A stretch of DNA of 64,000 nucleotides, from positions 7,687-71,686 of the forward strand of contig CAYPBQ010000004.1 in NCBI GenBank assembly GCA_964409035.1, read 5' to 3'. Made by a program: the position numbers and the translations under genes. The stretch is from an uncultured Candidatus Saccharibacteria bacterium. GTDB lineage: Bacteria > Patescibacteriota > Minisyncoccia > Phycocordibacterales > UBA12088. Shown here piece by piece: positions 11,367 to 63,662 of the stretch (positions are counted from its first letter, which is position 1; each line of letters opens with the position of its first letter). The notes beneath the pieces are model-generated. The model worked only from the letters and a program-made list of their open reading frames with translations, did not search any database and had not been told where the DNA came from.

Positions 11367-11377
11367 TATACTTCTAC

Positions 11378-35640: not shown

Positions 35641-35647
35641 TTCAACA

Positions 35648-35675
35648 TATCTCGTATAGACGAGATAGATTTTTA
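35648..35675 (+). terminator. Intrinsic terminator ATCTCGT-atag-ACGAGAT + GATTTTT
   Basis: Read from the sequence, 8 nt after the stop. Confidence 0.5.
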
Positions 35676-37155: not shown

Positions 37156-37251
37156 TCTGTTTTTGGAAACCACGACTCAACATTTGAATCATGGTTTCCG
37201 AGCGTAGACTCGGAGGTCGAACATTATCAGAAATAGCATTACTCGAGGATT

Positions 37252-37953: not shown

Positions 37954-37955
37954 TT

Positions 37956-38948: not shown

Positions 38949-38949
38949 T

Positions 38950-39738: not shown

Positions 39739-39743
39739 AGACA

Positions 39744-50000: not shown

Positions 50001-53000
50001 TCCTTAACTATGGAGGTGGGGGCGTGGCAATAGGTGCTCTTTCCTCGCCTAGCTATACTCTTGATGTAAGAGGAGACACGCGTACAAGCAGACTTCGTTT
50101 GTTGGGAGAAGGGACAGATAGCGGACAAAGCAATTGCTACTACTGTATGTATCAAGAGGGTGGTGCATGGAGTAGTCCGTATCCTGACCTGCGCATACAA
50201 TTTCACACCGGAATAAAAATGGAAGCGTACCACGCGTATGGTGGTATTAAGATGTACAACGGATACGATGGGTCTGGTAATCCTGCTGGCCTTGCCTTCT
50301 CAGTGGGAGACGGAGATCAAACGGTGCGCTCGTATCAAAACTTCTATGCACCTATTGTGTATGATCAAGATAATGCATCGTATTATCTTGATTCAAGTGC
50401 AAGTGGTACGAGCCTCAACACCGCCGGCGCGATATACGCAGGGGCAGATGTTATTGTGGGGAATCAAATTGTATTATCTCAAGCAAATGGTACTGACAAT
50501 GGCTCCCCAAGTATTACCCCATTTGCAACAGATGATTTTTCATACGATGGCGATTATTTAAGCCATTACGGCTTTGGTTTTTACAGCAATAGTGGTTCAG
50601 GGGGCACACACGCATACATGAACGGTTACTACGGCCTCGACTTTTTTACCTCAGGCACTAACAGAATGCGAATAAGATCTGACGGCAATATAGGCATCGG
50701 AACAGTCGCTCCTTCAGCAAAGCTCACTATAATTACGAGTAGTGACTCTGCTCCAAGTACTATTAGTGCCTACGACGCACGGCATATCTCGGTTGGTCCA
50801 AGTGTCTCAGATGCTATTGCTTTCTCAAAAACAACAGGAGGTAGTTCATACATCACTTCTCTTCGTCCGGGTGTTGCATGGGACCCTCTTGCAATACAAG
50901 CAAGTACATTCACCTTTAATCCAGGCGGAGGCACTTCTTCTTTTTACATTAATAGTTCCGGCAACATTGGTATTGGGACGACAGGTCAGCAAGAGAAGGT
51001 ACAGATTTTTAAGGATGGTACACCTGCTGAGGGTAACTTTGGTCTTTCTATACTCTCAGCTTCGGCAGATTCAGAGCTTGCACTCGGTGCCTCTGCTTCG
51101 GGGGACTACTCATACATTCAATCATTTTCAGATGGGGTAAGTTGGACAAACAGACCACTTATACTACAACCAAATGGTGGCGCGGTTACAATAGGAGCAG
51201 TAGCTAATCCACGAACAAATACTGTACTAGATGTAGCAGGAGGAATTGGAATGGGACGACTTGGTACGTTTGGTACATATAATTCTTCACAGATACAAGG
51301 TATATGGAGTATTTCTCCTGATTATTTGATTAGCACCGGTTCCAATAATGGAGGCAATGCATACGGCATGGCGTACAGCTACGATAGTAATGGTGTCGGT
51401 ATTTCCGGATATGGTCACCAGATAGTATTTGTCGGAAATGGTACACGATACGCAAGCATTGGTGTTGATTCCGGTCATGCATATTTCGCTGGCAACGTCG
51501 GCATAGGGACGACAGCGCCAGGGGTAAAATTGGATGTTGTAGGAAATATTGCCGTCTCTGGTTCAAATGGTAATAGCATTTATACATGGACAAACTCAGA
51601 CACTAACTGGAGAATGGGTATGTCTAATAGTCCTGGATTCACGAGAGCGCTCGCGACTACGCATACGTCCTATGTGACCTATTCAAATGGAGCTGGGCAG
51701 GGATTTGCGGTTGGGGTAAATGGAGGCAACTCCAGTTTTGAAGTTGCTGGTTCAGATCATACGGCATACTTCAGAGGTAATGTTGGTCTTGGGACGGCAG
51801 CGCCAGAATCTAAACTAGAGGTAAATGGCGGAGCGCTCACTATGCAACGAGACAACGTACTCCATTACAGAAACGTTGTGCACTATCGAGTTAATGCACC
51901 AGATCAGCCAGGCACCATGCAAATCGAGATGCCAAAATTGTGGTCGGACACCATGATAACAGTGACTATTAAGGGGTACGACTATGATGCAAGTGCGGTA
52001 GGGGCAGGAGCGTGGGAGGTGGTGGTAAGTGGCTACAATTATGGTGCTGGTCCTTACTGGGTTAACACGTCAGCAGAGATACGAGGTAACGCTCCATTTA
52101 CACAGGTGCGTCTTGCGCGCAATGGATCTAAAAACGTTATCCTCCTTGGTGATACATCAACAGACTGGGACTACCCACAGGTAGCGGTAACTGATGTTGT
52201 TGCTGGGTATTCATCACAGACAGGGTGGGGTAGCGGGTGGTCTATTTCGCTCCTTAGCTCTGAGGCAAGTATTTCAGTTGTTACCACACCAAACCTTAAT
52301 ATGGGTAGGTTTGCAGATGGTTCAGCGTCAGCACCTACCCTTAGCTTTTTCACTGATACCAATACTGGTATCTATCGCCCAGGTAGCGATATTATTGGCT
52401 TTACCACGGGTGGCACAGAGCGTTTACGTCTAGATGGTTCTGGAAATCTTACCTTCAGTGGGGCAAATCCAACCATACAATCTGGAGGATCATATTTTGT
52501 TATTCCAAACGGTGTTTATTTCTCAGGTGGTACATCTTATTTTCAGACTAATACCAATTTTAGAGCAAACATTCAAAATGATACTGCAGCCTACCTTACC
52601 ATTGCTGGTGGCACTAGTGGCAATACTTACTTCTCTGGCAACGTAGGTATTAATACCAGCGCACCTAGTGTCAAATTGCATGTAAATGCTGGAGCTGCAG
52701 AAGCAATACGCATACAAGGTACTGCGGCATATATGTCATTCTACGATACGGCAGGCAGCGACCGATTTGGCTATATTCAACACACAGGCTCTAACCTGGC
52801 ATTGGTAAACGAAGAAGCAGGAATACTTAGTTTCTATACTTCAAATACCGAACGTGCTCGTTTTGATAGTTCGGGTAATCTTATCTTTAATCGCGTAGGG
52901 ATAGGAGCGGTTGGATCGTATGATGCTACCAAGACGCAGGCAGTGTGGTCTATGGGATCATCGTATGTATTGCCTCCTGATGGCGGAACCACCTCATATG

Positions 53001-54643
53001 GTACTTTGTACGGACTCGGGTGGTCATACAATCCAGACTACGGAGGAGCGGGTAATAACCCTCAATCAAAGGCGGGTCTTAATCATCAACTACTCCTAAT
53101 GATGAATGGTGTCACATATACAGCACTTGGAAATGGTATTTGGACAGCGGGTAAAATAACCACGACTGGAGGTATTGCAAGCTCTGGTGGGACAGTTCTA
53201 TCAAACTATGCTGGCTCAGGAGATATCTGGTTGCCGTACACTGATGGGAATTCATATTTGCGTAGCCCAACAAACTGGGTAACAAATACTATTCGAGCAG
53301 AAAATGGAAATTGGTACTTGCCAAATAGCGGAAGTGCCTATTTCAATCAGGGTAGTATGGGTATTGGCACCACCTCGCCTGTCTCAACTCTTGAAGTCAG
53401 TCGCACTTCTCAAGATAGTAACTCGGTCAACTCATACGGATTTAATGTGACGAATGGTAATGGAAAAATTGGTATGGGATACGACTTGGCGGACAACATG
53501 GCATACATCCAAAGTTATAGATATCTCGTCTCGTGGAATAACCTAGTTATCAACCCACATGGAGGTAATGTTGGTGTTGGCACCATATCTCCTAACCAGG
53601 GCAAGGTAGAGGTAATGGGAGGATCAGTGTGTGTAGATACGAACTCCGATGCTAATGCTTCATCATGTATCGCAAACGAATCCGATGTGCGCTTGAAGAA
53701 AAATATTGAAACACTCTCTGCGAGTTCATCACTTGCAACTCTCCTTACCCTTAACCCCGTTACCTTTGATTGGCGAGTTGACGATCCTGAGGTGCTCTCG
53801 CACTACCCACTTATCTCTCGCTTCGCATCGTCAACACACTCAGTAGGACTTATCGCTCAAGAGGTGCTTGAAGCATATCCACTTGCGATGGGTACAGAGA
53901 CGGTGGGAGATAGTGAGGTGCAATATTTCCAGCTCGATTATGAAAAATTTATACCGCTTATTATTAGTGGTGTGAAAGAGCTTGCAATACGGGTAAATAC
54001 CTTTGGGGATACGCTAACCACACTCACCGGAAAAGTAGATGAGCTTGCCCTTGCAGTTACTACCCTTACCACAAAAGTCGAGGAGGGAGTGATAGCGAGC
54101 GGTAATGTAATAAGTAGCGGTCTATCACAATTTAGCGCGCTGTGGGTGGGAGAGATTGCAGTTGGTACAAGTGAAAAACCAACCGGTATTACTATGTATG
54201 ATGAAGTAACAGGTGAGCCGTATTGCTTTAAGATACGAGAGGGACAGATAGCTACCACTCTTGGTGTGTGTAGTACTATACCTACTGATGAGGATATGGA
54301 TACTGATGCTGATACAGAAGCTCCGATTATTGTGATAATGGGCAATAATCCTGCACAAATTAGTATTGGTGAGACGTATAATGATTTAGGAGTAACGGTT
54401 ACAGACAATATAAACCCAAATGTTGGGTACACTGTATTTGTTGATGGGGTAGAAGTATCAAACATTATGCTCGATACTTCAGTTGAAAGAACATACGAGA
54501 TTAAGTATGTAGCAGAAGATCAAGCAGGGAATATTGGTACCGCAACCAGAACGGTGATAATAGCCCCAATAGAAAATACGCCTCAAGAAGATACAGAGGT
54601 ATCAGATGAGGGTGATGTGCCAGAGGGTACACCATCTGAGTAG
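41054..54643 (+). CDS. Giant (4529 aa) secreted fibre/adhesin-like protein: signal peptide, tail-fibre-like repeats, two CBM4_9-like domains, phage-type intramolecular chaperone (peptidase S74) domain, C-terminal DUF5011 Ig-like domain
   Basis: Signal ...FSYSTAQAQ. More than 15 occurrences of G(N)VGIGTT(S/N)P...KL(D/E)V(V/S)G. 15-aa repeats NTAxGxxALxxNTTGxx (~45127-45600). NWQFESDGAW (46121-) and SNGDFETGTFTGW (48961-) are CBM4_9 hallmarks. SDVRLKKNIETL...LIAQEVLEAYP...QLDYEKFIPLII (53681-54000) is the endosialidase-chaperone domain. MGNNPAQISIGETYNDLGVTVTD (54318-54570) is DUF5011. Confidence 0.8.
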   Translation: MQSLLKTTAYIVNFILLFEAVVFPFSYSTAQAQVAFTRQINYQGKLTDTVGGVVADGNYNLRFKLYTSATGGSPIWTETWCYSPNAGITCNGTGVNNRPALVNGLFSVMLGSTTALTSINFNQPLYLGVEVGGTGTTPTWDGEMSPRKRLGTVPSAFEAENAQTVGGVASSSLLRSNTSDAYTSGTLTFDSGTSLVVNGNATFARATTTNATTTHLYIGTDVWLNGERFTDLTGTGLKNTAGALQVDDTVFLSLSNWFATTTDALDEGSSNLYFTNARVAAYINASSTIPHVAGGAFGNILRWSGSAWQSVATSTLRIAIGDTTGTLSVARGGTGATTLTGVLKGNGTSAFTAMTGTANYVTRWTDANTLGTGVLYDNGTNVGIGTTTPIDKLFVYGGDVSVGKSSNTSFTGTRIYTGGVERAQVLANIDSTDGGKLVFYTKASGGSITEAARFDQAGRMSIGVGATPSGRLHVAGSGNVLFMNSGNTGIGTTSPYAKLSVAGHVVGAYFTATTTSTSTLPRTNITRLTLGGDYVTDITGTGLSVSSGSLNVSAVPASALSLTQGYTYVGNASNVASATSTLFISTAKNVGVGTTVPAAKLQIQGSGGIGQSVMIDNRELKFRGDGDAHYSIFANRIAGTLTIEETSANGDVGYAGSVRLAIQKTTGYVGIGTDTPLSKLDVVGGSLGVRSSTLTNGSIYINPGGSDYAGYIDFYKAGPTRIAYLGYKDGGSGNLGLNLENSASFNINGGNVGIGTTSPTALLHVRKDQNEGTKSRVVNLSSGTNAFSQFSVDALGASLYNYAIGSGYTTAGRYVAASGALDAVGAGGLSISASDGSGVIRFYTAGDNERLRITSTGNVGIGTTSPYAKLSVAGHVVGAYFTATTTSTSTLPRTNITRLTLGGDYVTDITGTGLSVSSGSLNVSAVPASALSLTQGYTYVGNASNVASATSTLFMSSASRVGIKQTSPGTTLDVGASTLDTIRSYGGFVGHASANIDGTGAAAYFPNGLYSNAATSWIYGNVYFSAGASVIQSDGDVGIGTTNPTGRFSIVSADSPYMFTVSGASKGVRFEGNSTGVILSGVDNTLASSYQPLYMNGSYLGFQNSTTEVMRITGNKVGIGTTNPNYKLTVSAGDQDGISVVSSGTARMEFNPDGGGAVVFNNADANGFYFNQNGTTRVTFDGSGKVGIGTAAPDTILHISSATPVLRIDASNNNVDSTLQFLGRDSNSGQTSKVQFVQGVTETVSGIGATLNILTTKESSGGSTFTSSMFINKLGNVGIATTAPAYKMDVNGYINTSGITGGYKMQGNTVLYASTTNTSLAVGASSAAAWMRASSSQKYSIAMGYQALAATPTGNPTKNTALGFYALSANTSGTQNTSIGANTLQQNTTGSYNTAAGVLSQYANTTGSYNTSYGYASLFSNTTGTDNTALGFQSLYYNTSGVHNTAVGQNTLLSNTTGSYNSAFGLQALQSNTSGIHNTSIGRTSMYLNTSGSYNAALGMYALYYNTSATTSTAIGWGAGQGSTNYSNTGGTYVGYAAGYNLGNASNYNTLIGLQTGFGITTGARNTVIGNSTIAASYNQITTGSNNIAIGNDVAVPSATASNQLVIGNLIYGTGLSGTGSTVSTGSIGIGIVNPTGKLQVVGDEVRVGDSGSVDIATADGDLFVEDDLEVDGEIYASTILSGDTNLVPNWQFESDGAWPDPADTVETTFIDGESIKAHRSVESGTGCYGWGHSPTFLVNPTKTYEFSVWIKSTENDMNNYFGFFAYDASGTQISTSPFDNPYFRGDENDPNEWHRWSGYIMPSYSDDNANGFPDAGDSPQTRGVDYSWPSNTVSAKVRFGSCYGDGSNTGLSYFAYPQVKEIQPDKRFVEGDHTIYGDLVVGQSGATNKVDIASGTRSATHASGLPLYVTGDIGAASSGIEFRHSNGSQGIGFGYNTIYATGSNSSQELNFTTKGTSGMHFQIGGNTKMAINGTTGNVGIGTTTPGVKLDVVGSIRAYSNALNNATIDQTKIAFINTTNTAAFDVGLLGGTSDAIAYLYNRANAAMIFGTNNSSRMTIDGSGNVGIGTTNPGQKLEVTGNTTITGTLRVGASTGGSGTAGDIVARRSATTGAYYFGDSTSNYLYFDGTNYIFGLGGLYVNTNGNVGIGNTSPSQKLDVVGNIKSTGYGIFPTGIAPAVTGAPDGKIFSPSGDYLGATTWGINYNEGTPDYIEFNNASGATSRIALDDGSAHFALSGGSVGIGTTAPGSKLVVSGGNVTIAPTGSEIAAGYNPLYVNAPVASSVTTDEEVSTAGINIRGYGDNVNLQLGVGGSALNYSGWIQASYDNGGTGGVEPLLLNPAGGNVGIGTTSPTKKLSTYHTGSQNGIEIAGYVPTLYFRNVGYTGDHYHISVAETGTNSTFAIKNETDGTYPFAIDGAGKVGILNSSPTYSLDVSGTGRFTDDLYMESGLKRENNSLDDTDSSLYMQYYSSGGGVVIGDSGVDHDLTVYGTGTFNEYIYLPDSNTRLSEGAGNALRMQTNSGYIDIGAQNTSYAHIYTDRPAFYTNAPVRVQGSLSVGSATYAGTDAPTNGAIIEGNVGIGTTNPASFKLQVAGNVGPETDATYDLGSSAKRWNNLYLTNAPIIGGYHDLTNDNLLSNGDFETGTFTGWTASGTTGVVSAGAYAGNYSAQSTGNQTVLSDDYIPVDPDYDVLQLEGWFKETTTGSPTPGVLYFGYIAYDESKVAITTSPCGTYCYFAASGYNIPNDGAWHKFSATTNGEGTSYPNFPVGTKYVRVLMLMNYAASSNEVTRFDHVTLKRVNNGPLFVGNNFSTTNLADQNQATKLYTTASNNFVIEPPSSGKVGIGTASPRQKLEVIGISQISYADGGNDFLTIQPYTDGYTYFNSHGDGAGEGGFRFRTNDGAAESMVITHSGYVGIGTTGPGNLLSVNQAGNATVGTGTTYGIALYNQGTLNAGLGSDASSVFLQSWAGKPLHINNQGNNTILNYGGGGVAIGALSSPSYTLDVRGDTRTSRLRLLGEGTDSGQSNCYYCMYQEGGAWSSPYPDLRIQFHTGIKMEAYHAYGGIKMYNGYDGSGNPAGLAFSVGDGDQTVRSYQNFYAPIVYDQDNASYYLDSSASGTSLNTAGAIYAGADVIVGNQIVLSQANGTDNGSPSITPFATDDFSYDGDYLSHYGFGFYSNSGSGGTHAYMNGYYGLDFFTSGTNRMRIRSDGNIGIGTVAPSAKLTIITSSDSAPSTISAYDARHISVGPSVSDAIAFSKTTGGSSYITSLRPGVAWDPLAIQASTFTFNPGGGTSSFYINSSGNIGIGTTGQQEKVQIFKDGTPAEGNFGLSILSASADSELALGASASGDYSYIQSFSDGVSWTNRPLILQPNGGAVTIGAVANPRTNTVLDVAGGIGMGRLGTFGTYNSSQIQGIWSISPDYLISTGSNNGGNAYGMAYSYDSNGVGISGYGHQIVFVGNGTRYASIGVDSGHAYFAGNVGIGTTAPGVKLDVVGNIAVSGSNGNSIYTWTNSDTNWRMGMSNSPGFTRALATTHTSYVTYSNGAGQGFAVGVNGGNSSFEVAGSDHTAYFRGNVGLGTAAPESKLEVNGGALTMQRDNVLHYRNVVHYRVNAPDQPGTMQIEMPKLWSDTMITVTIKGYDYDASAVGAGAWEVVVSGYNYGAGPYWVNTSAEIRGNAPFTQVRLARNGSKNVILLGDTSTDWDYPQVAVTDVVAGYSSQTGWGSGWSISLLSSEASISVVTTPNLNMGRFADGSASAPTLSFFTDTNTGIYRPGSDIIGFTTGGTERLRLDGSGNLTFSGANPTIQSGGSYFVIPNGVYFSGGTSYFQTNTNFRANIQNDTAAYLTIAGGTSGNTYFSGNVGINTSAPSVKLHVNAGAAEAIRIQGTAAYMSFYDTAGSDRFGYIQHTGSNLALVNEEAGILSFYTSNTERARFDSSGNLIFNRVGIGAVGSYDATKTQAVWSMGSSYVLPPDGGTTSYGTLYGLGWSYNPDYGGAGNNPQSKAGLNHQLLLMMNGVTYTALGNGIWTAGKITTTGGIASSGGTVLSNYAGSGDIWLPYTDGNSYLRSPTNWVTNTIRAENGNWYLPNSGSAYFNQGSMGIGTTSPVSTLEVSRTSQDSNSVNSYGFNVTNGNGKIGMGYDLADNMAYIQSYRYLVSWNNLVINPHGGNVGVGTISPNQGKVEVMGGSVCVDTNSDANASSCIANESDVRLKKNIETLSASSSLATLLTLNPVTFDWRVDDPEVLSHYPLISRFASSTHSVGLIAQEVLEAYPLAMGTETVGDSEVQYFQLDYEKFIPLIISGVKELAIRVNTFGDTLTTLTGKVDELALAVTTLTTKVEEGVIASGNVISSGLSQFSALWVGEIAVGTSEKPTGITMYDEVTGEPYCFKIREGQIATTLGVCSTIPTDEDMDTDADTEAPIIVIMGNNPAQISIGETYNDLGVTVTDNINPNVGYTVFVDGVEVSNIMLDTSVERTYEIKYVAEDQAGNIGTATRTVIIAPIENTPQEDTEVSDEGDVPEGTPSE
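42641..42804 (+). repeat. 164-bp perfect intragenic direct repeat, copy 1 (copy 2 at 43754-43917), embedded in ~290-bp homologous blocks whose 5' parts differ at scattered sites
   Basis: Base-by-base comparison of 42517-42810 against 43636-43920. Confidence 0.8.
43754..43917 (+). repeat. 164-bp perfect intragenic direct repeat, copy 2
   Basis: See copy 1. Confidence 0.8.
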
Positions 54644-54672: not shown

Positions 54673-55203
54673 ATGAATAATTTTTATAGAAACAAGCATG
54701 GATTCACTCTTATAGAGCTGCTCGTTGTCATCGCTATTATTGGGCTTCTATCATCAGTGGTATTTGCGTCATTAAATACCGCGAGAGGAAAAGCTCGTGA
54801 TGCCCGAAGAAAAGCCGATCTTGCGGAGCTTCAAAAAGGACTAGAGTTGTATTACGACACCTACGGCGGGTATCCATCAAGTGCGTGTCCTGCGGTTGAT
54901 TATCAAATCGAGACAAGTCTTGCAATGGAATCAAAGATGCTCCAGTTTCTACCGACATTTCCAAAGGATCCTCAAGATGGTAGCTGCTACAATAATTCAT
55001 ACCTTTATATTAGTAACGTATACAACAACTGCAGCGCCCCAAATGCTGGAGCGACACAATATGCGCTATACGCAACGCTAGAAGACCAGACACAAAACAA
55101 CTTAAACCCCGCAAGTGGTACCGACAATTGGCTCCGTGGTGGCGCTGGAGCGTGTGGTAATAGTAACCGACCAAATTACAAAGTAACCACAGGCGGCATA
55201 TAG
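54673..55203 (+). CDS. Type IV pilin/pseudopilin-like protein
   Basis: MNNFYRNKHG|FTLIELLVVIAIIGLLSSVVFASLNTARGKARDARRK. C-terminal domain has 4 Cys. Confidence 0.75.
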   Translation: MNNFYRNKHGFTLIELLVVIAIIGLLSSVVFASLNTARGKARDARRKADLAELQKGLELYYDTYGGYPSSACPAVDYQIETSLAMESKMLQFLPTFPKDPQDGSCYNNSYLYISNVYNNCSAPNAGATQYALYATLEDQTQNNLNPASGTDNWLRGGAGACGNSNRPNYKVTTGGI

Positions 55204-55255
55204 GGATTGGGAATAAGCAGCAAGATGTTCAAATTAAACTAATGTATACTACACA

Positions 55256-56296
55256 GTGATGAAAAGAATACGAGTAGCAATAAATGGATTTGGAAGAATA
55301 GGGAGGGCATTTTTTAGTGTTGCTAAGAATGTCCCTGAATTACAAGTAATCGCCATCAATGATTTAGGAGACGCAGAAAATCTTGCCTATTTGCTTAAAT
55401 ACGACACGGTATATGGAAGGAGTGGATTTGATCCAAAAATAAAAAAGGAGGGGAGTGCGGTATTTATGGATGTTGAGGGTAATCACACTCGATTTTTATC
55501 GGAAAAAGACCCAACTATGTTGCCCTGGAGTGAGTTAGATATTGATATAGTACTTGAATCAACTGGTGTGTTTGCAAGTTACGAGAAGGCGCGAGTACAT
55601 CTTGAGGCGGGAGCTAAGCGGGTTGTTATTAGTGCGCCAGTAAAGGATGAGGCGCCTTCTGGGATCATCGGTGTTACGGCGCTTATGGGTATTAATACTG
55701 AGCTCCTTAAAGACGCGGATATATCTTCTAATGCATCGTGTACCACTAATGCGGTATCTCCAGTAATACAAATACTTCACGAAGCTATTGGAATCGAAAA
55801 GGCAATGCTCAATACCACCCATGCGTATACCGCAAGTCAGTCTATAGTTGATGGTACTAAGCCAAAGGATTGGAAAGAGGGAAGAGCTGCGGCACACAAC
55901 ATTGTCCCCACCACTACCGGCGCGGCAGTTGCAACCACCAAGGCAATTACTGATCTTGCAGGAAAGTTTGATGGAGTTGCAATGCGTGTGCCGGTTATCG
56001 CAGGTTCAATTGCTGATATTACTTTTGTTGCAAAGAGGCGTACCTCGGTAGTAGAAGTAAATACCGCCCTCAAGGAAGCGGCACTTACCCCTCGTTGGAA
56101 AGATGTATTTTCTTTCACTGAAGAGCCGATAGTATCAAGTGATGTACTTGGACAGCCTTTTGCTTCTATCGCAGATCTTTCTCTCACTCAGGTAGTAGAC
56201 GGTGATTTGGTAAAGGTGCTTGCGTGGTATGACAATGAAATGGGCTATACTCACTCACTCATACAACATGTAAAGGAAGCAGGAAGGTATGTATGA
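55256..56296 (+). CDS. gap: Glyceraldehyde-3-phosphate dehydrogenase
   Basis: RVAINGFGRIGRAFF (NAD-binding), SNASCTTNAVSPV (active-site ASCTTN), WYDNEMGYTHSL. Confidence 0.9.
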   Translation: MMKRIRVAINGFGRIGRAFFSVAKNVPELQVIAINDLGDAENLAYLLKYDTVYGRSGFDPKIKKEGSAVFMDVEGNHTRFLSEKDPTMLPWSELDIDIVLESTGVFASYEKARVHLEAGAKRVVISAPVKDEAPSGIIGVTALMGINTELLKDADISSNASCTTNAVSPVIQILHEAIGIEKAMLNTTHAYTASQSIVDGTKPKDWKEGRAAAHNIVPTTTGAAVATTKAITDLAGKFDGVAMRVPVIAGSIADITFVAKRRTSVVEVNTALKEAALTPRWKDVFSFTEEPIVSSDVLGQPFASIADLSLTQVVDGDLVKVLAWYDNEMGYTHSLIQHVKEAGRYV

Positions 56297-56835
56297 AAAT
56301 AATAAATAATCCATCTCTATCAATAAGTGACGTAAAAAGAGGATTTACCCTCATAGAACTACTTGTAGTGATTGCCATTATCGGGCTACTTTCATCGGTG
56401 GTATTTGCGTCACTTAATAGCGCGCGCACAAAGGCGCGTGATGCTAAGCGACAGGCAGATTTGGGGCAAATACGAATAGCGCTAGAACTTTACTATGACG
56501 CAAATGGCGCATACCCCATAGGTGGTTGGTGGTATAGTTGCGATTCGTCCTGGAATAACTTACAAAGTGCCCTTGCTACGTATATGCCTAACTTGCCGAA
56601 GGATCCAGTTAACACATCATGTGCGGGTCCGTGGAATAACGGCTACTACACATATGTGTACGGCTCTGGCTCTGGGCAAAAATACGATCTTATAGGACAG
56701 TTTGAAAATACTAGTCATCCAGAGCGATGTGCAGTACGCGGGTGGCGATATCATGATTGGGGAGGAGGAACTTACTGGTGTAGTTACGCGGGCGGTGGCT
56801 ACGGTTATAGCCCCTACATGTTTGCAGACCATTAA
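56293..56835 (+). CDS. Type IV pilin/pseudopilin-like protein (ATGA overlap with gap)
   Basis: ...SDVKRG|FTLIELLVVIAIIGLLSSVVFASLNSARTKARDAKRQ. Cys-rich C-terminus. Confidence 0.75.
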   Translation: MKIINNPSLSISDVKRGFTLIELLVVIAIIGLLSSVVFASLNSARTKARDAKRQADLGQIRIALELYYDANGAYPIGGWWYSCDSSWNNLQSALATYMPNLPKDPVNTSCAGPWNNGYYTYVYGSGSGQKYDLIGQFENTSHPERCAVRGWRYHDWGGGTYWCSYAGGGYGYSPYMFADH

Positions 56836-56843
56836 AATACAGT

Positions 56844-57299
56844 ATGACAAAAAAGACAGTAATCATTGGTGCTGATCATGCAGGCTTTGCACTCAAAAAA
56901 GCCCTTATTTCATATGTTCAAAATGAGCTTCAACATGAGGTGGTTGATATGGGAGCCACTGATTTTGATGAAAATGACGATTACCCCACTATACTTATTC
57001 CAGCGGTCTCCCGAATGTTGGGCTCGCTTGAAAATAGTGTCGGTATTTTTATAGGAGGTTCAGGGCAGGGAGAGGCGATAGTAGCTAATAGGTGTAAAGG
57101 GATACGAGCCGCGGTGTACAATAATGACAATCTCGAATTAATTAAACTTGCGCGAGAGCATAATGACACAAATGTTCTATCGATTGGGGCGCGGTTTATT
57201 TCTGAAGATGGCGCAAAAGAGGCGGTAGCACTTTTTCTTGCAACTGATTTCTCCAACGAAGCGCGTCATGTTCGTCGTATTGCACAAATAGATGCTTGA
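56844..57299 (+). CDS. rpiB: Ribose-5-phosphate isomerase B (RpiB/LacAB family)
   Basis: VIIGADHAGFALKKAL...GIFIGGSGQGEAIVANRCKGIRAA...LSIGARF follows the RpiB pattern. Confidence 0.85.
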   Translation: MTKKTVIIGADHAGFALKKALISYVQNELQHEVVDMGATDFDENDDYPTILIPAVSRMLGSLENSVGIFIGGSGQGEAIVANRCKGIRAAVYNNDNLELIKLAREHNDTNVLSIGARFISEDGAKEAVALFLATDFSNEARHVRRIAQIDA

Positions 57300-57306
57300 T
57301 ATGCTA

Positions 57307-57795
57307 ATGATAAGAAAAACATCCGGATTCACCCTCATCGAGCTTCTTGTTGTTATCGCTATTATTGGGCTACTGTCATCGGTGGTATTTGCATCACTTA
57401 ATAGCGCACGAGCAAAAGCACGTGATGCGGTGAGAAAAACACAATTAGCTGAGGCGATGAAAGCACTTCAATTATATTACGACACCTATAATACCTTTCA
57501 GGTGGCTGGGTCTGGGTGGCAGGGGTGTTCGTGTGGGTGGTTCGACTATCAAGATTCAGGTTCATACGCTCTATCTGTCTCAAGAGCGCTTGTAAATGCG
57601 GGTTTGGTTAGTGGAGAGATTTCGCACCCAACACCCGGGCAGTACTACATGATATATCACCCATACGGAGCAACGGTTGGAGTCTGTTTGTATGCTCAGC
57701 TTGAAAATCCTACTGCGGAGGATAGAGCAAAGTATGCATCACAGCCTAACAACCTTGATGGCTATGGTATGAATTATGCTGTTTGTTCGCGATAA
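57307..57795 (+). CDS. Type IV pilin/pseudopilin-like protein
   Basis: MIRKTSG|FTLIELLVVIAIIGLLSSVVFASLNSARAKARDAVRK. Start at the ATG at 57307, which gives a 7-aa leader; the track start 57292 overlaps rpiB. Confidence 0.75.
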   Translation: MIRKTSGFTLIELLVVIAIIGLLSSVVFASLNSARAKARDAVRKTQLAEAMKALQLYYDTYNTFQVAGSGWQGCSCGWFDYQDSGSYALSVSRALVNAGLVSGEISHPTPGQYYMIYHPYGATVGVCLYAQLENPTAEDRAKYASQPNNLDGYGMNYAVCSR

Positions 57796-57804
57796 TTTTA
57801 TTTT

Positions 57805-58479
57805 ATGAATGTTCAAATTCTACCCGCTATATTGCCTACATCACACGCAGATTTAGTTGAAAAGGTTGCACTTGTCGTGCCTCCTGCGACTCGTATTCAA
57901 ATTGATATTGTTGATGGTATATTCGCAGCGCCATCCACATGGCCAATAGCCAATAAAGCGGATAATGAATGGCAAGAAATTCTCACCCAAGATAGAGGGC
58001 TTCCTAAGTGGGAGAGTGTTGAGTATGAGATTGATCTTATGGTAGAAAACCCAAGAGAGCATATGGATGCCTGGATTGACGCAGGTGCCTCTACACTCAT
58101 ATTTCATTTTAACTCTTCCATACTACCTGCATTGCAAGAATGTATTTCATTGGCACATGAGCGTGGAACACAAGTAGGTCTTGCGATAAAACCATCTAGT
58201 GAAGGTTATGAAGATTTGTTAGGTGGTATTGACCTTATCCAAGTAATGGGGAGCGATACCATTGGTATGCAGGGCACTCCACTTGATGAACGTATATATG
58301 ACATCATTGCGCGGCTACATGCTAGTAGCGAGGTTACGATTGGTGTAGATATTGGCGTGAATAAACGTACGCTAAAAAAGCTAGTTGCTGCAGGAGCAAC
58401 ACACTTTGCTGTTGGGTCAGCTATATTTGGCGACTCATCACCTAAAGATGCGTATAAACAATTACTTGAATTGGTGTAG
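57805..58479 (+). CDS. rpe: Ribulose-phosphate 3-epimerase-like (TIM-barrel Rpe family)
   Basis: ILPAILPTSHADLVEKV...IQIDIVDG (compare IAPSILSADF...HVDVMDG), DLMVENP (compare HLMV.NP), GVDIGVNKRTL, AVGSAIFG. Confidence 0.7.
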   Translation: MNVQILPAILPTSHADLVEKVALVVPPATRIQIDIVDGIFAAPSTWPIANKADNEWQEILTQDRGLPKWESVEYEIDLMVENPREHMDAWIDAGASTLIFHFNSSILPALQECISLAHERGTQVGLAIKPSSEGYEDLLGGIDLIQVMGSDTIGMQGTPLDERIYDIIARLHASSEVTIGVDIGVNKRTLKKLVAAGATHFAVGSAIFGDSSPKDAYKQLLELV

Positions 58480-58487
58480 TAAGTGCT

Positions 58488-59000
58488 ATGAGACAAAACA
58501 GCGCATTTACCCTCATAGAACTACTGGTCGTTATCGCTATCATCGGACTACTGTCATCGGTGGTATTTGCGTCACTTAATAGCGCACGCACAAAGGCGCG
58601 TGACGCGACGAGACTTGCAGAAATCCAAGAAATTGTAAAAGCACTTGCGCTGTATTATTCAGATTATAATGCGTATCCTGATTCAGATTTTGATGGGTGC
58701 GGTGGATGGGATAATGGTAATCTCGCGTATCCGTTACTTAATGGTAGGGGCATGGATACATATTTTTCAGGGAGAGTACCTATCGATGAGGGATTTTCTG
58801 GAAACTGCCAAGGATACAATTATTATAGATATCCTGCGGGCTATGCTAATTGTGATAGTGCTCGCGGAGCGTATTTTGTGCTTGGGGTAAGAGATATGGA
58901 AACATCAGGTAACCCACATCCTGATTCACCAGGGTGGAGCTGTCCATCTAGAGACTGGCAAGGAGAGTTTGATTATGTGGTCGGAGGGTTTGAGCGTTGA
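58488..59000 (+). CDS. Type IV pilin/pseudopilin-like protein
   Basis: MRQNSA|FTLIELLVVIAIIGLLSSVVFASLNSARTKARDATR. 6 Cys in the C-terminal domain. Confidence 0.75.
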   Translation: MRQNSAFTLIELLVVIAIIGLLSSVVFASLNSARTKARDATRLAEIQEIVKALALYYSDYNAYPDSDFDGCGGWDNGNLAYPLLNGRGMDTYFSGRVPIDEGFSGNCQGYNYYRYPAGYANCDSARGAYFVLGVRDMETSGNPHPDSPGWSCPSRDWQGEFDYVVGGFER

Positions 59001-59034
59001 TATGTGGATACTGAAAGCTGCTACTTGAGGTATC

Positions 59035-59907
59035 ATGGTAATGATGGCATATCTAACAGAGGAGAAACGATTATTTCTTGAACAAAAAGCAAACGAAGTA
59101 CGTCAGTTACTGATCGACATGCTTGAGGATGCAGGATCAGGGCACACTGCAGGCCCTTTGGGTATGGCAGATGTATTTACTGCGTTTTATTTTCATATTC
59201 TTAATCACAACCCTAAAGAACCAATGTTTCAAGATAGGGATCGATTCATTCTTTCTAATGGACATATCGTACCAATTAGATATGCAACTATGGCGCTCGC
59301 TGGTTATTTTAGTGTTGAAGAAGCAAAAACACTTAGAAAGTTTGGCTCAAGGATGCAGGGACACCCAGAGCGCATATTATTACCAGAAATGGAGACCACT
59401 TCTGGTCCACTAGGAACAGGGCTTTCTCAGGCTGCGGGTATTGCACTTGCTGCACGTATGGATAAAAAAACTTTTCGCACCTATTGCATGATGGGTGATG
59501 GAGAGCAGGACGCGGGTAATGTGTGGGAAGCAGTAATGTTTGCGGGAAAGTATAAACTATCTAATCTCACCGCCATCATAGACAGAAACAATATACAAAT
59601 TAATGGTATGACTGAAGAGGTTATGCCACTTGAACCCCTACGAGATAAATATGAGGCGTTTAACTGGAATGTGATTGATATAGATGCGCACAACATGGAA
59701 GCTATTGTTGATGCGGTAGAGCAGGCAAAAGCAGTGTATGAAAAACCTACACTTATCATTGCGCATGCAATTGCAGGTAAGGGAATAAAGGAAATCGAGT
59801 ATGATTATAAGTGGCACGGTATACCGCCTAATAAAGAGCAAGAACAAAAGTGGCTCAAAGAACTTCGTTCATTAGGAGGAAAAATAACTCCAAGTAACCA
59901 CGATTAA
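59035..59907 (+). CDS. Transketolase, N-terminal (ThDP-binding) subunit of a split enzyme
   Basis: GSGHTAGPLGMADVF (ThDP-binding), MMGDGEQDAGNVWEA (GDG motif), IIDRNNIQING. Confidence 0.85.
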   Translation: MVMMAYLTEEKRLFLEQKANEVRQLLIDMLEDAGSGHTAGPLGMADVFTAFYFHILNHNPKEPMFQDRDRFILSNGHIVPIRYATMALAGYFSVEEAKTLRKFGSRMQGHPERILLPEMETTSGPLGTGLSQAAGIALAARMDKKTFRTYCMMGDGEQDAGNVWEAVMFAGKYKLSNLTAIIDRNNIQINGMTEEVMPLEPLRDKYEAFNWNVIDIDAHNMEAIVDAVEQAKAVYEKPTLIIAHAIAGKGIKEIEYDYKWHGIPPNKEQEQKWLKELRSLGGKITPSNHD

Positions 59908-59908
59908 T

Positions 59909-60907
59909 ATGATTGTAGGAGAAGCACGACTACACAAAGGAATACTTGACGACACTCTGAGAGAAACAGGTGCTACTCGTGATGGTTTTGGAAAGGGTGT
60001 GGTTGAGGCAGGAGAGCGTGACGCAAGGGTGGTGGTGTTATGTGCTGATCTAGCAGAGAGTACCCGCAGTCATTGGTTTAAAGAAAAATTTCCTGATAGA
60101 TATATTGAGCTTGGAGTTGCGGAACAAAATCTTGCAGGGGTAGCAAGTGGTATGGCATCTATGGGTAAAGTACCATTTATTACTTCTTATGCGGCATTTA
60201 ACCCTGGTCGCAATAATGAACAGATACGAACAACAATCGCCCTTAATGAGCAACCAGTGATTGTTTGTGGTATGCATGCCGGTCTATCGGTAGGACCTGA
60301 CGGCGCAACACACCAAGCACTAGAGGATGTTGCGCTTATGCGTGTCATTCCTAATATGACAGTCATTGTTCCAATGGATATGGAAGAAGCAAGAAAGGCC
60401 ACACTTGCTGCAGCTACAAACAAACGTCCTACATACCTTAGATTTGCGAGAGAAAACACTCCAATACTAACAACCAAAGATACCCCATTTGAAATTGGTA
60501 AGGCGTATCGAGTGTGGCAGGGAGATAAGCCAAAAGTTGGTATTATCGCGATGGGTAGTATGGTATATCAAGCAATACAAGCAGCAGTTGATTTAGAAAC
60601 TCGTCTTGGTATTAGCTCGGTGGTGCTTTCAGTACATACTATAAAACCACTTGATACTGATGCGGTAGTTGCGCTTGCGCATGAGACTAATGCAATACTC
60701 ACTGTTGAAGAACATCAGGTAATGGGTGGATTAGGCGGCGCGGTGGCAGAAACGTTAAGCTTGATGCGCCCAACTAAAATGGCATTTATTGGAGTACAAA
60801 ATCGGTTTGGTCAGTCTGGTACAACACAAGAGTTATACAGCGCATACGGATTAGATGTACCTACTATTGTACAAAAAGCTATTTCCTTAACACAATCTTC
60901 ACTATGA
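59909..60907 (+). CDS. Transketolase, C-terminal (pyrimidine-binding + C-terminal domain) subunit
   Basis: GVAEQNLAGVASGMA, MHAGLSVGPDGATHQALEDVALMRVIPNM. Starts 1 nt after the N-terminal subunit stop. Confidence 0.85.
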   Translation: MIVGEARLHKGILDDTLRETGATRDGFGKGVVEAGERDARVVVLCADLAESTRSHWFKEKFPDRYIELGVAEQNLAGVASGMASMGKVPFITSYAAFNPGRNNEQIRTTIALNEQPVIVCGMHAGLSVGPDGATHQALEDVALMRVIPNMTVIVPMDMEEARKATLAAATNKRPTYLRFARENTPILTTKDTPFEIGKAYRVWQGDKPKVGIIAMGSMVYQAIQAAVDLETRLGISSVVLSVHTIKPLDTDAVVALAHETNAILTVEEHQVMGGLGGAVAETLSLMRPTKMAFIGVQNRFGQSGTTQELYSAYGLDVPTIVQKAISLTQSSL

Positions 60908-60949
60908 AAAAGAAATATTCCGCAATGAAATCGTATGAAGTGAGACCAT

Positions 60950-61249
60950 TTGTTGCTTGGTTTTTTATCTCTTCTGTCACTGCCGGTGCATACTACTTCC
61001 TCTGGAGTATATCCAACAGTATGGTTGTTTATTAGCATTGTAATGTATATGAGAAAATTACACGCAATAAAATTAAATTTTTGGTTCAGTGGAATATTTC
61101 TCGGGGCACTTGCTGGAGGCGCCATGTTTCTTATTTATAAAGTCTCACACAGCGAAGCATTTATCGCTGATATTTCAGCGACACGTGTGCAGAATGATCA
61201 GATTTTAAAGGGTAGAGATTTTGATGAGATAAATCTCTACGCTGAATAG
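60950..61249 (+). CDS. Hypothetical small membrane protein (99 aa)
   Basis: Open frame with two hydrophobic segments. An alternative 43-aa ORF in another frame starts at 60904. Weak support. Confidence 0.25.
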   Translation: MLLGFLSLLSLPVHTTSSGVYPTVWLFISIVMYMRKLHAIKLNFWFSGIFLGALAGGAMFLIYKVSHSEAFIADISATRVQNDQILKGRDFDEINLYAE

Positions 61250-61258
61250 GTATTTATC

Positions 61259-62257
61259 CTACAGCGCAGTCGGAATGTACTCAGGTGGCGCTTTGCGTAG
61301 ATAGTCTTGTATCTGATCTTGCGAGAGAAGTCCCTTTTGCGCACCAATCTCTTGCACTACAGACATTGAGTTGATTGGTCCCCAACTTAGGGCGGTAGGT
61401 ATGTCGTGTCCTAGTGCGAGTGCTGTGGTGAATGTTGAAGAAAATGAATCACCAGCACCTGTTCTATCAACGGGTGGGGCGATATCTGGGTACATTGGCA
61501 TATGCCACGCACTCACGCCATCGCTTGCATACGCACCACGTGGGCCATCAGTAATGACAACTATTTTTGGACCCTTTTGATGTATAGCATGCAGCAATTG
61601 TTTTATATCAAGACCCTTTTCACCTACGATACTTTGCGCCTCCTCTTTATTACAAAAAAACAGAGTTGATGCTTCGTATACAGATTTAAGTGCCTCGTAT
61701 CCGAGTTTGATTTGAAATGATCCTGGTTGAAATACCAACTTGCTTGTGGGGTGATTTTTTACATAGGTAGCTATCTCCTCGTGGTATGGAAGTGAATTAT
61801 GCTCTCCCACTGAGCTGAAATATATCCACGATGGTTCACCAAGATCAGGGAGTGAGTATGGATATTCCTCATGCTTAATTAAAATAGTGCGCTCCGGCGC
61901 TAGGCGTAGTACGTAATGATGATTGGATTTTTTACCAGCGTGCCTTCGTACAAATCTTTTATCAACACCCTCTTGCTCAAGCTGACGTATCATCTGGTCA
62001 CCCTCGTCGTCATCTCCCATATCAGTTACGAGTGCGCTACGAAGACCTAGCCGATGTGCACTCACAGCGGCATTAGGACTATTACCCACAGCAGGCACAA
62101 TCACAAAGTCTTTGAACTCAATTTTATCTCCAAAGTTCATCGCAAGGAGCTCGCGACCACTTTCGGTATCAGTTACTACCTTAGCCCATTCAGGTGAGAG
62201 CTCAATAAACTCATCGTTTACTATGTCGCCAATTGCTACGAAATCAAGTTTTTCCAT
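61259..62257 (-). CDS. PfkB-family carbohydrate kinase (ribokinase/fructokinase-like)
   Basis: VDRTGAGDSFSSTFTTALALG (PfkB signature 2, DTxGAGD) and an N-terminal GG dipeptide region. 332 aa. Confidence 0.75.
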   Translation of the reverse strand: MEKLDFVAIGDIVNDEFIELSPEWAKVVTDTESGRELLAMNFGDKIEFKDFVIVPAVGNSPNAAVSAHRLGLRSALVTDMGDDDEGDQMIRQLEQEGVDKRFVRRHAGKKSNHHYVLRLAPERTILIKHEEYPYSLPDLGEPSWIYFSSVGEHNSLPYHEEIATYVKNHPTSKLVFQPGSFQIKLGYEALKSVYEASTLFFCNKEEAQSIVGEKGLDIKQLLHAIHQKGPKIVVITDGPRGAYASDGVSAWHMPMYPDIAPPVDRTGAGDSFSSTFTTALALGHDIPTALSWGPINSMSVVQEIGAQKGLLSQDQIQDYLRKAPPEYIPTAL

Positions 62258-62313
62258 AATAGAAATGCGGATAAGCTGATATATTATAGTTACGTATATA
62301 CAGTGTAGCAGTT

Positions 62314-62889
62314 ATGCATAATTTGTTACAGAGATTTAAAACAAGAAATATCTACAGAGGATTTACTCTCATAGAGTTACTCGTAGTCATTGCTATTATT
62401 GGACTCCTTTCCTCGGTGGTATTTGCTTCACTTAACAGTGCGCGTAGCAAGGCACGTGACGCCAAACGAATTGCAGATTTTCAGCAAATTCGAACCGCAC
62501 TAGAATTGTTTTATGATACACATGGTAGATACCCCAATAGCCCTGGAGCTGCCACATGGGATCAACATTGGGATTATTTTGCCCAGTGTCTTGAAACAGC
62601 GAGTGATGCCTCATGCGGATTTGCCCTCTCAACTCGCCCTGTCTTTATGTCAGAGGTGCCACAAGATCCTCAAGACAGCCCATCGGGATTTTCTGATGCA
62701 GATCCGACATATTACTATGCATGGCCAGCGGGTTGTGGGACGGGACAAAGCTATAGACTCGCAGTACGCCTAGAAAATGCAAGCAACCAGAGCCTGGGTG
62801 GGGATTTAGACGGCAGTTTTTATAATAATAACGGGCTTTGTAATGATCCATATTATTGTATTGGGGTGGGTACCTGTGGTGGCTGGTAG
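62314..62889 (+). CDS. Type IV pilin/pseudopilin-like protein
   Basis: ...NIYRG|FTLIELLVVIAIIGLLSSVVFASLNSARSKARDAKR. 7 Cys in the C-terminal domain. Confidence 0.75.
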   Translation: MHNLLQRFKTRNIYRGFTLIELLVVIAIIGLLSSVVFASLNSARSKARDAKRIADFQQIRTALELFYDTHGRYPNSPGAATWDQHWDYFAQCLETASDASCGFALSTRPVFMSEVPQDPQDSPSGFSDADPTYYYAWPAGCGTGQSYRLAVRLENASNQSLGGDLDGSFYNNNGLCNDPYYCIGVGTCGGW

Positions 62890-62959
62890 GATTCGATTTT
62901 TATAGTGATTAGTCATTACTGGGTTGCCAAATATCCATAATTAGGTATAGTTTTGCGGT

Positions 62960-63610
62960 ATGGTAGTAAAACTAGAAGCAACAAAACGAGAGACATCAAA
63001 GTCCGCACGCGCCACCCTCAGAAAGGAGGCGATGATTCCTGCGGTGGTGTATGGCAAGAAGGAGGCATCAACTCCTATTGCGGTGTCAGTAATTAATTTT
63101 AAAAAGGTGTGGGAAGAGGCTGGCGAGTCAACAGTGGTTACTCTTGATGGCTTTGGAAAAAGCGTTGATGTGCTAATCCAGGAGGTATCAATAGATCATA
63201 TATCGGGCCTTCCGGTGCATGTTGATTTTTATGCTATTGAGGCAGACAAAAAAGTTGAGGTAGAGGTACCACTTGAGTATGTTGGTGAGGCTCCTGCGGT
63301 GAAGCTCCTTGGAGGAAACCTTGTAAAGGTTCTTCACGAAGTATCTATTGAAGCACTTCCAAAAAATCTTCCTCATAGTATTGAAGTTGATATCTCTTCA
63401 CTAGAAACATTTGAAACTCAAATTCTTGCTAAGGATTTGAAGCTAAGTACCGGTGTTACCCTTATTACTGATGCTGAGGAAGTAGTTGCACTGGTAGCTC
63501 CAGTTACAGAGGAAAAAGAAGAAGAGGTAGCTGCTCCGGATTTATCTGCCATTGAAGTAGAAAAGAAGGGTAAGACTGATGAAGAAGCAGACACTAAAGC
63601 TGACGAATAA
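62960..63610 (+). CDS. rplY: 50S ribosomal protein L25 / general stress protein Ctc
   Basis: MVVKLEATKRETSKSARATLRKEAMIPAVVYGKKE (L25 N-terminal consensus), full-length Ctc form with an acidic C-terminal tail. Confidence 0.8.
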   Translation: MVVKLEATKRETSKSARATLRKEAMIPAVVYGKKEASTPIAVSVINFKKVWEEAGESTVVTLDGFGKSVDVLIQEVSIDHISGLPVHVDFYAIEADKKVEVEVPLEYVGEAPAVKLLGGNLVKVLHEVSIEALPKNLPHSIEVDISSLETFETQILAKDLKLSTGVTLITDAEEVVALVAPVTEEKEEEVAAPDLSAIEVEKKGKTDEEADTKADE

Positions 63611-63630: not shown

Positions 63631-63662
63631 AAGCAACATGCCCCAATGGGGGCATGTTGCTT
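63631..63662 (+). terminator. Intrinsic terminator: 14-bp stem AAGCAACATGCCCC-aatg-GGGGCATGTTGCTT followed by TAGTGTTTTGTG
   Basis: Perfect inverted repeat read from the sequence, 20 nt after the rplY stop. Confidence 0.6.

Follow-up and report, generated by a model that had tools for sequence, protein, structure and literature searches.

In the Parcubacteria the genes of the non-oxidative pentose-phosphate pathway form a conserved cluster, in whose description pilins go unmentioned, and the type IV pilus machinery is part of the core of the same group (Nelson & Stegen 2015, PMC4508563). In Nanosynbacter lyticus TM7x, 13 predicted pilins are distributed over several loci, one orphan; they resemble the pseudopilins of type II secretion systems (T2SS) in sequence, give lollipop-shaped AlphaFold models and are reported to be of low conservation across phyla, and the pili are important for the episymbiotic lifestyle (PMC11623550). 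Here we analyse a stretch of 64,000 nucleotides (the window) from an uncultured Candidatus Saccharibacteria bacterium (assembly GCA_964409035.1, contig CAYPBQ010000004.1), in which type IV pilin genes are interleaved with the genes of such a sugar-phosphate cluster. Accessory pilins separated from the main pilin gene are themselves familiar, ComP, PilV and PilX of Neisseria being major-like proteins encoded apart from pilE and the machinery and thought to co-assemble. We consider, with a probability of about 0.6, that old and distinct pilin genes were inserted into a permissive, probably constitutive housekeeping operon and are read through with it. Within the literature searched we found no description of pilins interleaved with the pentose-phosphate/transketolase cluster of Candidate Phyla Radiation bacteria; the operon architecture is a new variation, and not a new kind of system. 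The order of the locus is pil1-gap-pil2-rpiB-pil3-rpe-pil4-tktN-tktC-o43-o66-pfkB(-)-pil5-L25, where the minus sign marks the opposite strand, with a sixth pilin gene (pil0) at 22526:

54673-55203, + strand: pil1, type IV pilin paralog; leader MNNFYRNKHG followed by F, mature protein of 166 aa with 4 Cys; N_methyl (8.9e-10) and TIGR02532
55259-56296, + strand: gap, type I glyceraldehyde-3-phosphate dehydrogenase; Gp_dh_N/Gp_dh_C, TIGR01534 (1e-107)
56293-56835, + strand: pil2, pilin of a widespread Patescibacteria subfamily; N_methyl; start overlaps the gap stop (ATGA)
56844-57299, + strand: rpiB, ribose-5-phosphate isomerase B; LacAB_rpiB (1.5e-39), NF004051 above cut-off
57292-57795, + strand: pil3, pilin of a lineage-restricted subfamily; N_methyl
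57805-58479, + strand: rpe, divergent ribulose-phosphate 3-epimerase; Ribul_P_3_epim (2.3e-18)
58488-59000, + strand: pil4, pilin of a very widespread subfamily; N_methyl; leader MRQNSA followed by F, Ala at -1
59035-59907, + strand: tktN, transketolase N-terminal subunit; Transketolase_N (2.1e-63)
59909-60907, + strand: tktC, transketolase C-terminal subunit; Transket_pyr and Transketolase_C
60904-61035, + strand: o43, membrane open reading frame (ORF) of 43 aa; ATGA overlap with the tktC stop; protein kept in the sister locus L086 despite synonymous changes
61049-61249, + strand: o66, membrane ORF of 66 aa, final gene of the co-directional string; kept in L086
61259-62257, - strand: pfkB-family sugar kinase, ribokinase-like; PfkB (7.9e-37); convergent with the operon
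62258-62313: divergent intergenic region of pfkB and pil5 with candidate promoters; conserved with L086, promoter-like matches
62314-62889, + strand: pil5, pilin paralog with 6 Cys; N_methyl
62920-62981, + strand: candidate promoter and 5' end of L25, TTGCCA-16-TATAGT at 62924-62951; closes the pilin/sugar-phosphate neighbourhood in the window
62960-63610, + strand: ribosomal protein L25 (ORF call)
22526-23104, + strand: pil0, sixth pilin paralog, outside the block; N_methyl/TIGR02532, same invariant 24-aa helix; downstream of a Wzy_C+TPR protein

The pilin and enzyme assignments in the locus are all backed by Pfam and NCBIfam, and the ORF positions and gene order of an earlier interpretation made by a model from the letters alone (hereafter the sequence-only reading) hold, as does its sixth pilin. 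The window has a G+C content of about 43% and a coding density of about 0.96, and its RpiB, GAPDH and transketolase have their affinity with the Parcubacteria/Kaiserbacteria part of the Patescibacteria. Comparison with the sister locus L086 refined several gene starts: the gap ORF begins at GTG 55256, the start kept in L086 being ATG 55259; the true start of tktN is likely ATG 59044, L086 having ATA at the position matching 59035; and a 99-aa mechanical ORF after tktC is an artefact of start choice, the comparison giving o43 and o66 in its place. The best NCBIfam match of pfkB is ribokinase, with a score below the cut-off. The junctions had been described as 0-10 nt or overlapping, which is so for six of them (-4, 8, -8, 9, 8 and 1 nt) and not for pil1 to gap (52 nt) or pil4 to tktN (34 nt, or 43 nt if the start is ATG 59044). 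The proposed 8-nt overlap at 57292 hinges on the start of pil3, for which the public gene call of the same sequence uses the alternative at 57301, 1 nt past the rpiB stop. No structured RNA or riboswitch reached the Rfam gathering score in 34000-64000, and no tRNA was found in the window.

Set beside the systems above, the locus shares with the Parcubacteria cluster the string gap-rpiB-rpe-tktN-tktC, the opposite-strand pfkB and L25, an arrangement recovered in most of 82 loci of relatives; it differs in that the window's lineage has a pilin before gap, at the junctions up to tktN and after pfkB, with two additional pilins past L25 in L086. Like TM7x, this is a Patescibacteria organism with many pilin paralogs over several loci, but the TM7x pilins lie in machinery or pilin-only loci and are never interleaved with central-carbon genes; and whereas low pilin conservation was reported in that work, identity within the pil2 and within the pil4 subfamily is 50-70% over many Parcubacteria lineages. 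The T2SS proteins GspG, EpsG and PulG provide the best NCBIfam model (TIGR01710, E 1e-10 to 5e-16) and the best folds in the PDB, and the window proteins depart from them in their larger heads with two or three Cys pairs, in the lack of a gspH-K-like set or secretin context and in coming from a monoderm-like organism. With the Neisseria accessory pilins they have in common full length, similar size, a shared N-terminal helix with differing heads and genes placed apart from the assembly genes; here, however, the helix is strictly identical in six proteins, four of the genes stand inside a metabolic operon, and co-assembly is presumed.

The six proteins add new members to a known family. Each of them has a class III (prepilin) signal, and the DNA pattern of the prepilin motif occurs 6 times against 0 expected. 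The leaders are 6-17 aa long, with Gly at position -1 in five of the six and Ala in pil4, and with F+1 and E+5 in all six; the sequence around the cleavage site (marked by a slash) is G/FTLIEL in five pilins and A/FTLIEL in pil4, with Glu5 in each. Mature lengths are 155-183 aa with 4-6 Cys per head, two of which are nearly invariant in the pil2 subfamily. Scores for PF07963 were 32-38 bits in pil1-pil5 (cut-off 21.2) and for TIGR02532 28-36 bits in all six (cut-off 16.3). Identification as GspG proper was rejected: TIGR01710 gave 40.6-59.0 bits against a cut-off of 88.85, over 53-103 N-terminal model positions only, and because these scores are far under the GspG cut-off we file the proteins in the type IV pilin superfamily. 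Structure prediction with AlphaFold2 (AF2) covered pil2 alone, built on 55 homologs, and gave a confident model (pLDDT 91, pTM 0.79) with a lollipop fold, its N-terminal helix (20-71, 52 residues) packing on a small beta head. Every one of the top 19 PDB matches of this model is a T2SS major pseudopilin or a type IV pilin, among them EpsG, PulG, gonococcal pilin and Clostridioides difficile PilA1; the best are 4lw9, 3gn9, 3fu1 and 1t92, and each match is weak when taken individually (E 0.04-1.7, TM score up to 0.50 by target).

The age of the pilin genes can be read from their shared helix. All six paralogs have the same 24 residues, FTLIELLVVIAIIGLLSSVVFASL, while the 72 nt that encode them are 68-89% identical between paralogs: in pairwise comparison 8-18 of the 24 codons differ, third positions agree in only 7-16 of 24, and exact runs common to two pilin genes reach 9-32 nt at the longest, mostly no more than 17 nt. 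The near-identical 5' segment announced by the sequence-only reading thus exists as protein and not as DNA. Because the residues are invariant while the codons differ, the helix bears the mark of old genes that selection has fixed to one peptide; judged from these sequences, its DNA is a poor substrate for homologous recombination and the pattern is unlike recent duplication or gene conversion. Nor are the C-terminal domains unrelated, as had been claimed, since the pilins align end to end at 32-47% identity and have the motifs LELYYD..G.YP, PKDP and Y.L..LEN in common. Databases hold more than 100 homologs of pil2 (48-92% identity over about 90% of the length) and more than 100 of pil4 (51-68% over about 99%), the latter in genomes labelled Campbellbacteria, Nealsonbacteria, Doudnabacteria, Portnoybacteria and others; a representative search with pil3 returned one match at 72%, the remainder being at about 55% or less over the full length. 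Since homologs of pil2 and pil4 are closer to them than the paralogs of the window are, the five pilins stand for distinct subfamilies that split well before the species arose. Recent tandem duplication was rejected on the same ground, the paralogs being 32-47% identical and pil2 and pil4 yet having closer homologs in other phylum-level groups. What a recent event does look like is to be seen elsewhere in the window, where two tandem paralogous membrane proteins of 153/154 aa (25572-26033 and 26084-26548), for which no Pfam family was found, have 5' segments of 165 nt that are 96% identical in DNA; unlike the pilins, this pair does go back to a recent duplication or gene conversion.

Two loci of a sister species, L086 (a 237-kb contig, GCA_964562615.1) and L087 (a JGI contig), show how stable the arrangement has been. 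Both have the order pil1-gap-pil2-rpiB-[PemK toxin]-pil3-rpe-pil4-tktN-tktC-o43-o66-pfkB(-)-pil5-L25, followed by a 469-aa protein, two additional pilins and L31. The window and L086 are about 79% identical in nucleotides overall and their synonymous sites are saturated (dS, the synonymous divergence, 0.9 to >3). Protein identities to the L086 orthologs are 97% for pil1, 88% for pil2, 75% for pil3, 92% for pil4 and 94% for pil5, and 97.7% for gap and 75% for rpe. Ratios of nonsynonymous to synonymous divergence (dN/dS) of the pilins were 0.011 (pil1), 0.041 (pil2), 0.097 (pil3) and 0.029 (pil4), a range of 0.011-0.097 to be compared with 0.016-0.065 in the housekeeping genes (SecA, Obg, GatB, GAPDH, TktN, TktC, PfkB, L25). 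Every window pilin pairs with a single positional partner in L086 (75-97%), all others being at 59% or below, with heads of positional orthologs 76-99% identical and no mosaicism among paralogs. As far as these sequences can tell, the pilins are constrained like core enzymes and the interleaved order has long been stable, and it is for this reason that antigenic variation and pseudogenes are ruled out. Chance ORFs or pseudogenes were likewise rejected as an account of the genes, the orthologs being intact and dN/dS low.

In the same comparison one enzyme gene behaves differently. The rpiB of the window (56844-57299) and that of L086 (10544-10993) are 52% identical in protein and 55-65% in nucleotides, the flanking genes being at 88-98%; the L086 allele has a relative (P0076) at 91% and the window allele none above 62% (best non-self about 60%). 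This suggests that rpiB was replaced in place by a foreign allele in one sister genome. The adjacent pil3 and rpe are also more divergent between the sisters (75%). Between rpiB and pil3, L086 has a PemK-family toxin gene (11002-11388) that is missing from the window, an insertion which shows that the operon junctions go on taking new genes.

To place the locus among its relatives, RpiB served as the anchor in species-representative genomes and TktN in metagenomes; about 170 loci were annotated by phmmer and a pilin profile hidden Markov model, and the dereplicated set carrying the block amounts to 82. In many of these 82 (L003, L004, L005, L009, L015, L017 and L092 among them) gap-rpiB-rpe-tktN-tktC runs uninterrupted, which on this comparison is the ancestral state and the housekeeping operon of the group. 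Dozens of relatives have the block in this order on a single strand, with pfkB and L25 close by, the position of pfkB being kept in most. Inserts at the junctions are toxin-antitoxin-like pairs (L002, L033), small membrane proteins, an aldolase and sometimes pilins, the last in L006, L007, L016, L018, L082, L085, L093, L122, L132, L138, L141, L148 and L170. In a crude test with mechanical ORF calls, over loci that are phylogenetically non-independent, pilins accounted for 19 of the 297 non-core ORFs within the block and for 12 of the 730 beyond it (odds ratio 4.1, p = 1.6e-4; 3.5, p = 0.0017, when the window's lineage is left out). The comparison across loci thus indicates that pilins have a clade-wide affinity for the block.

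The junction most often filled is that between rpiB and rpe, where a sister clade has a conserved two-gene cassette of an 83-aa membrane protein and a pilin. Pairs of a transmembrane protein (about 80-90 aa) and a pil2-type pilin stand at this junction in L093, L122, L129, L131, L132, L138, L141 and L170, and elsewhere in the block in L006 (13396-14145) and L016 (7790-8950). The sister-clade pilin upstream of rpe had been a candidate ortholog of pil3; it clusters with the pil2 subfamily instead. Orthologs of the pil2 type occur in the block in five of the seven lineages whose contexts were examined, at differing junctions: between gap and rpiB (L086), between rpiB and rpe (L170), before tktN (L172), as four tandem copies between tktN and tktC (the P0123 contig) and between pfkB and L25 (L088). 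Outside the block they lie beside murD (L169) and in a plasmid-like context (L171), where a pilin at 63% identity (8001-8513) is found near ParA, an RHH antitoxin, a replication protein A-like gene and PD-(D/E)XK, in a neighbourhood that also holds an S74/Ig-like fibre protein; this context hints that pil2-subfamily pilins can travel on mobile DNA. A pil4-type ortholog is solitary between tgt and ileS (L173), and lone pilins amid housekeeping genes are common in the group (L169, L173, L083).

The nearest outgroups by TktN (69-79% identity) are without full interleaving, and none of the next-closest lineages (L089, L091, L092, L095, L165) has a pil4-type pilin upstream of tktN. Among the loci surveyed the pattern of one pilin per junction is complete only in the window's own lineage, and by this comparison it arose there before the split from L086. 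The idea of the sequence-only reading that pilins were inserted into an existing conserved operon is therefore upheld, the uninterrupted block being common in the Patescibacteria; its judgement of the arrangement as highly unusual is to be narrowed, junction inserts including pilins occurring in relatives and the full one-per-junction pattern in the window's lineage only.

Signals for transcription and translation were examined in the window and against L086. From pil1 and gap to tktC-o43-o66 the genes lie on one strand with junctions of -8 to 52 nt and no convincing intrinsic terminator inside: no strong + strand terminator was found in 54673-61249, where there are two weak terminator-like hairpins, both in coding sequence, and the only strong one stands at 63631-63662, past L25. 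With synonymous sites saturated, non-coding DNA that has been conserved is easily recognised in the comparison with L086. A 62-nt run at 62920-62981 is 100% identical (background 79%) and contains a near-consensus TTGCCA-16-TATAGT, scored 10/12 in the promoter scan; identity over 62240-62330, a segment that takes in the space between pfkB and pil5, is 87%, an exact run of 33 nt stands at 62302-62334, and promoter-like matches fall at 62233-62260 and 62260-62287; and a TATACT box is conserved 8 nt before the gap ATG. No conserved upstream islands like those of L25, pfkB/pil5 and gap were found between the two genomes before pil2, rpiB, pil3, rpe or pil4. Exact runs of 47 nt also occur inside coding sequence, at 61058-61104 in o66 and at 60053-60099 in tktC; the latter overlaps a promoter-like match (60077-60106) and may reflect a promoter within the gene, an RNA element or a peptide under very strong constraint. 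In L086 no ATG, GTG or TTG precedes AFTLIEL in the pil4 ortholog (12730-12764), the only candidate start being an in-frame ATA that overlaps the rpe stop (ATAA), an overlap that fits termination-reinitiation coupling after rpe; as there is no canonical start before AFTLIEL, the public L086 call begins within the helix and loses the signal peptide. Indirect as these signals are, they favour an embedded set of pilins that is most likely co-transcribed with the sugar-phosphate genes and closely coupled to them in translation; pil5 probably has its own transcription unit after the opposite-strand pfkB, and pil1 is possibly a separate unit as well. All pilins had been placed in one operon, which suits the co-directional string of pil1-pil4 and not pil5, behind pfkB and with its own conserved upstream region; gap, too, probably has a promoter-like region of its own.

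Under the favoured explanation, pil1-pil4 would have been inserted one by one, pil1 ahead of gap and the others at the successive junctions as far as tktN, and pil5 would have been placed between pfkB and L25. The first 24 mature residues would have been kept identical by purifying selection for a shared peptidase, assembly platform and filament core, and the different, putatively disulfide-bonded heads would confer different surface properties, like a major pilin and its major-like accessory pilins in Neisseria and like the multi-pilin systems demonstrated by experiment in Saccharibacteria (PMC11623550). The embedded genes are thought to be read through with the operon because there is almost no intergenic DNA, there are no terminators and there are no conserved upstream islands; such read-through would give constitutive pilin expression without dedicated promoters at about 96% coding density, and the embedded pilins would now rely on the operon for their expression. 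What the sequences themselves establish is the identity of the genes, a helix conserved as protein only, the age of the paralogs, an order and sequence kept in a sister species, an ancestral operon without interruption and the enrichment of pilins in it; co-transcription, co-assembly in one pilus and a selective reason for the location are what we infer.

Several observations weigh against this explanation. Tight spacing and same-strand runs are a genome-wide trait (over the rest of the window the median gap between same-strand neighbours is 9 nt, with 15 of 29 at 10 nt or less) and do not single out the cluster, and because such junctions occur throughout, they argue little for the stoichiometric co-expression suggested in the sequence-only reading. 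The absence of promoters is judged on a two-genome comparison, and promoters could hide in upstream coding sequence. The conserved TATACT box before gap hints at one internal start or more, so that pil1 may be transcribed apart. No gene for PilD, PilB, PilC or PilM lies within the 64-kb window, for which reason prepilin processing and assembly are assumed from knowledge of the group. To these are to be added the individual weakness of the pil2 fold matches and the crudeness of the enrichment test, both given above.

Could the pilins have simply piled up? The junctions may tolerate inserts, abundant pilins may have accumulated there by chance and stayed because rearrangements are rare, their promoters may lie inside upstream genes and the location may bring no gain, an account we consider unlikely without dismissing it. 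It draws on the many unrelated inserts at the same junctions (278 non-pilin ORFs against the 19 pilins inside the block), among them the toxin-antitoxin pairs of L002 and L033 and the PemK gene of L086, on the solitary pilins among unrelated housekeeping genes in L169, L173 and L083, and on the tight spacing throughout the genome. It sits badly, however, with the roughly 4-fold enrichment of pilins in the block relative to the flanks, with the presence of one pilin subfamily, in five of seven lineages, in a block that makes up no more than some 1-2% of such a genome, and with a gene order kept across saturated synonymous divergence; the L086 pil4 without a canonical start is moreover hard to square with an independent unit of transcription and translation. 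A selected link to nutrition is more doubtful still. In such a scenario the pili would capture DNA or nucleosides or hold the host, the block would burn the ribose, PfkB, RpiB, Rpe, transketolase and GAPDH converting the pentose, and the operon would fix the ratio of pilus subunit to enzyme in one co-expressed, selected module. The recurrence of pilins at the block across lineages and at different junctions, the ribokinase-like neighbouring kinase and the presence of type IV pili and competence genes in the Parcubacteria core beside the non-oxidative pentose-phosphate cluster (PMC4508563) are in its favour. Yet the link is drawn from co-location only, neither competence genes nor genes for nucleoside processing stand in the block, pilins are found in other housekeeping neighbourhoods too, and the ribokinase match of PfkB is below the family cut-off. 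Were it true, a surface organelle would be wired to central carbon metabolism in a way not recognised before, in organisms with almost no transcriptional regulators.

The sequence-only reading had also seen in the 5' segments a route of insertion by recombination and a substrate for antigenic variation. Under such a scheme, known from pilE/pilS of Neisseria, variable heads would move between expression sites. The resemblance lies in several pilin segments with a shared 5' part and a variable 3' part, here within 8 kb, and one may add that the junction of the block at which pil2-type pilins stand varies from lineage to lineage and that rpiB, between two pilins, was apparently exchanged for a divergent allele in one sister genome. 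The segment is kept as protein and not as DNA, however, with 68-89% identity and exact runs mostly of 17 nt or less and 32 nt at most; all six copies are full ORFs with start codons and leaders, and the window has neither the silent truncated copies nor the high DNA identity and diversification of pilE/pilS; and orthology is positional and one-to-one, stable between species, with dN/dS of 0.01-0.10 across saturated dS and no mosaicism. The level of DNA identity, the completeness of the copies, positional orthology and dN/dS rule out antigenic variation, insertion through recombination at the 5' segment finds no support, and to cassette exchange as an origin of the pattern we allow only a very slight chance. 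We thus keep to the insertion of old pilins into a permissive operon as the preferred explanation.

Other surface genes lie close to the pilins. A block of about 19 kb directly upstream of pil1 (35641-54643) is missing in L086, where a homolog of p225 is followed after 312 nt by pil1. It contains an HTH_17 gene (36241-37155), four secreted or surface ORFs (37252-41069) and a giant protein (41054-54643; 4529 aa) that is repetitive and carries a Peptidase_S74 intramolecular-chaperone domain and an Ig-like C-terminus, and it looks like a species-variable surface-fibre island. The four ORFs upstream of the giant gene are co-directional and Thr/Ser-rich with N-terminal anchors, one with a weak, below cut-off match to the peptidoglycan-binding domain of WxL-interacting proteins (E 0.004), and may be a surface-complex module accompanying the giant protein. 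Just upstream of pil0, 19903-22068 encodes a membrane protein of 721 aa in which an O-antigen-ligase (Wzy_C) domain is followed by TPR repeats at the C-terminus, a pairing that recalls, by analogy, the pilin O-glycosyltransferases PglL/TfpO. No Pfam family was matched by p225, by o43 and o66 or by the small transmembrane partner of the pilin cassette.

Type IV pili are central to the way in which Patescibacteria find and hold their hosts, and the pilins of this locus seem to have surrendered their own transcription units. The repeated pilin 5' ends here are not the mark of an antigenic-variation system; five conserved pilins with an identical helix are instead a defined set for the structural study of mixed filaments, and the recurrent tie of one pilin subfamily to the block is a lead on a possible functional link between pili and pentose salvage. 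If co-transcription is true, the locus would be a concrete example of a streamlined genome tying accessory surface genes to housekeeping expression.

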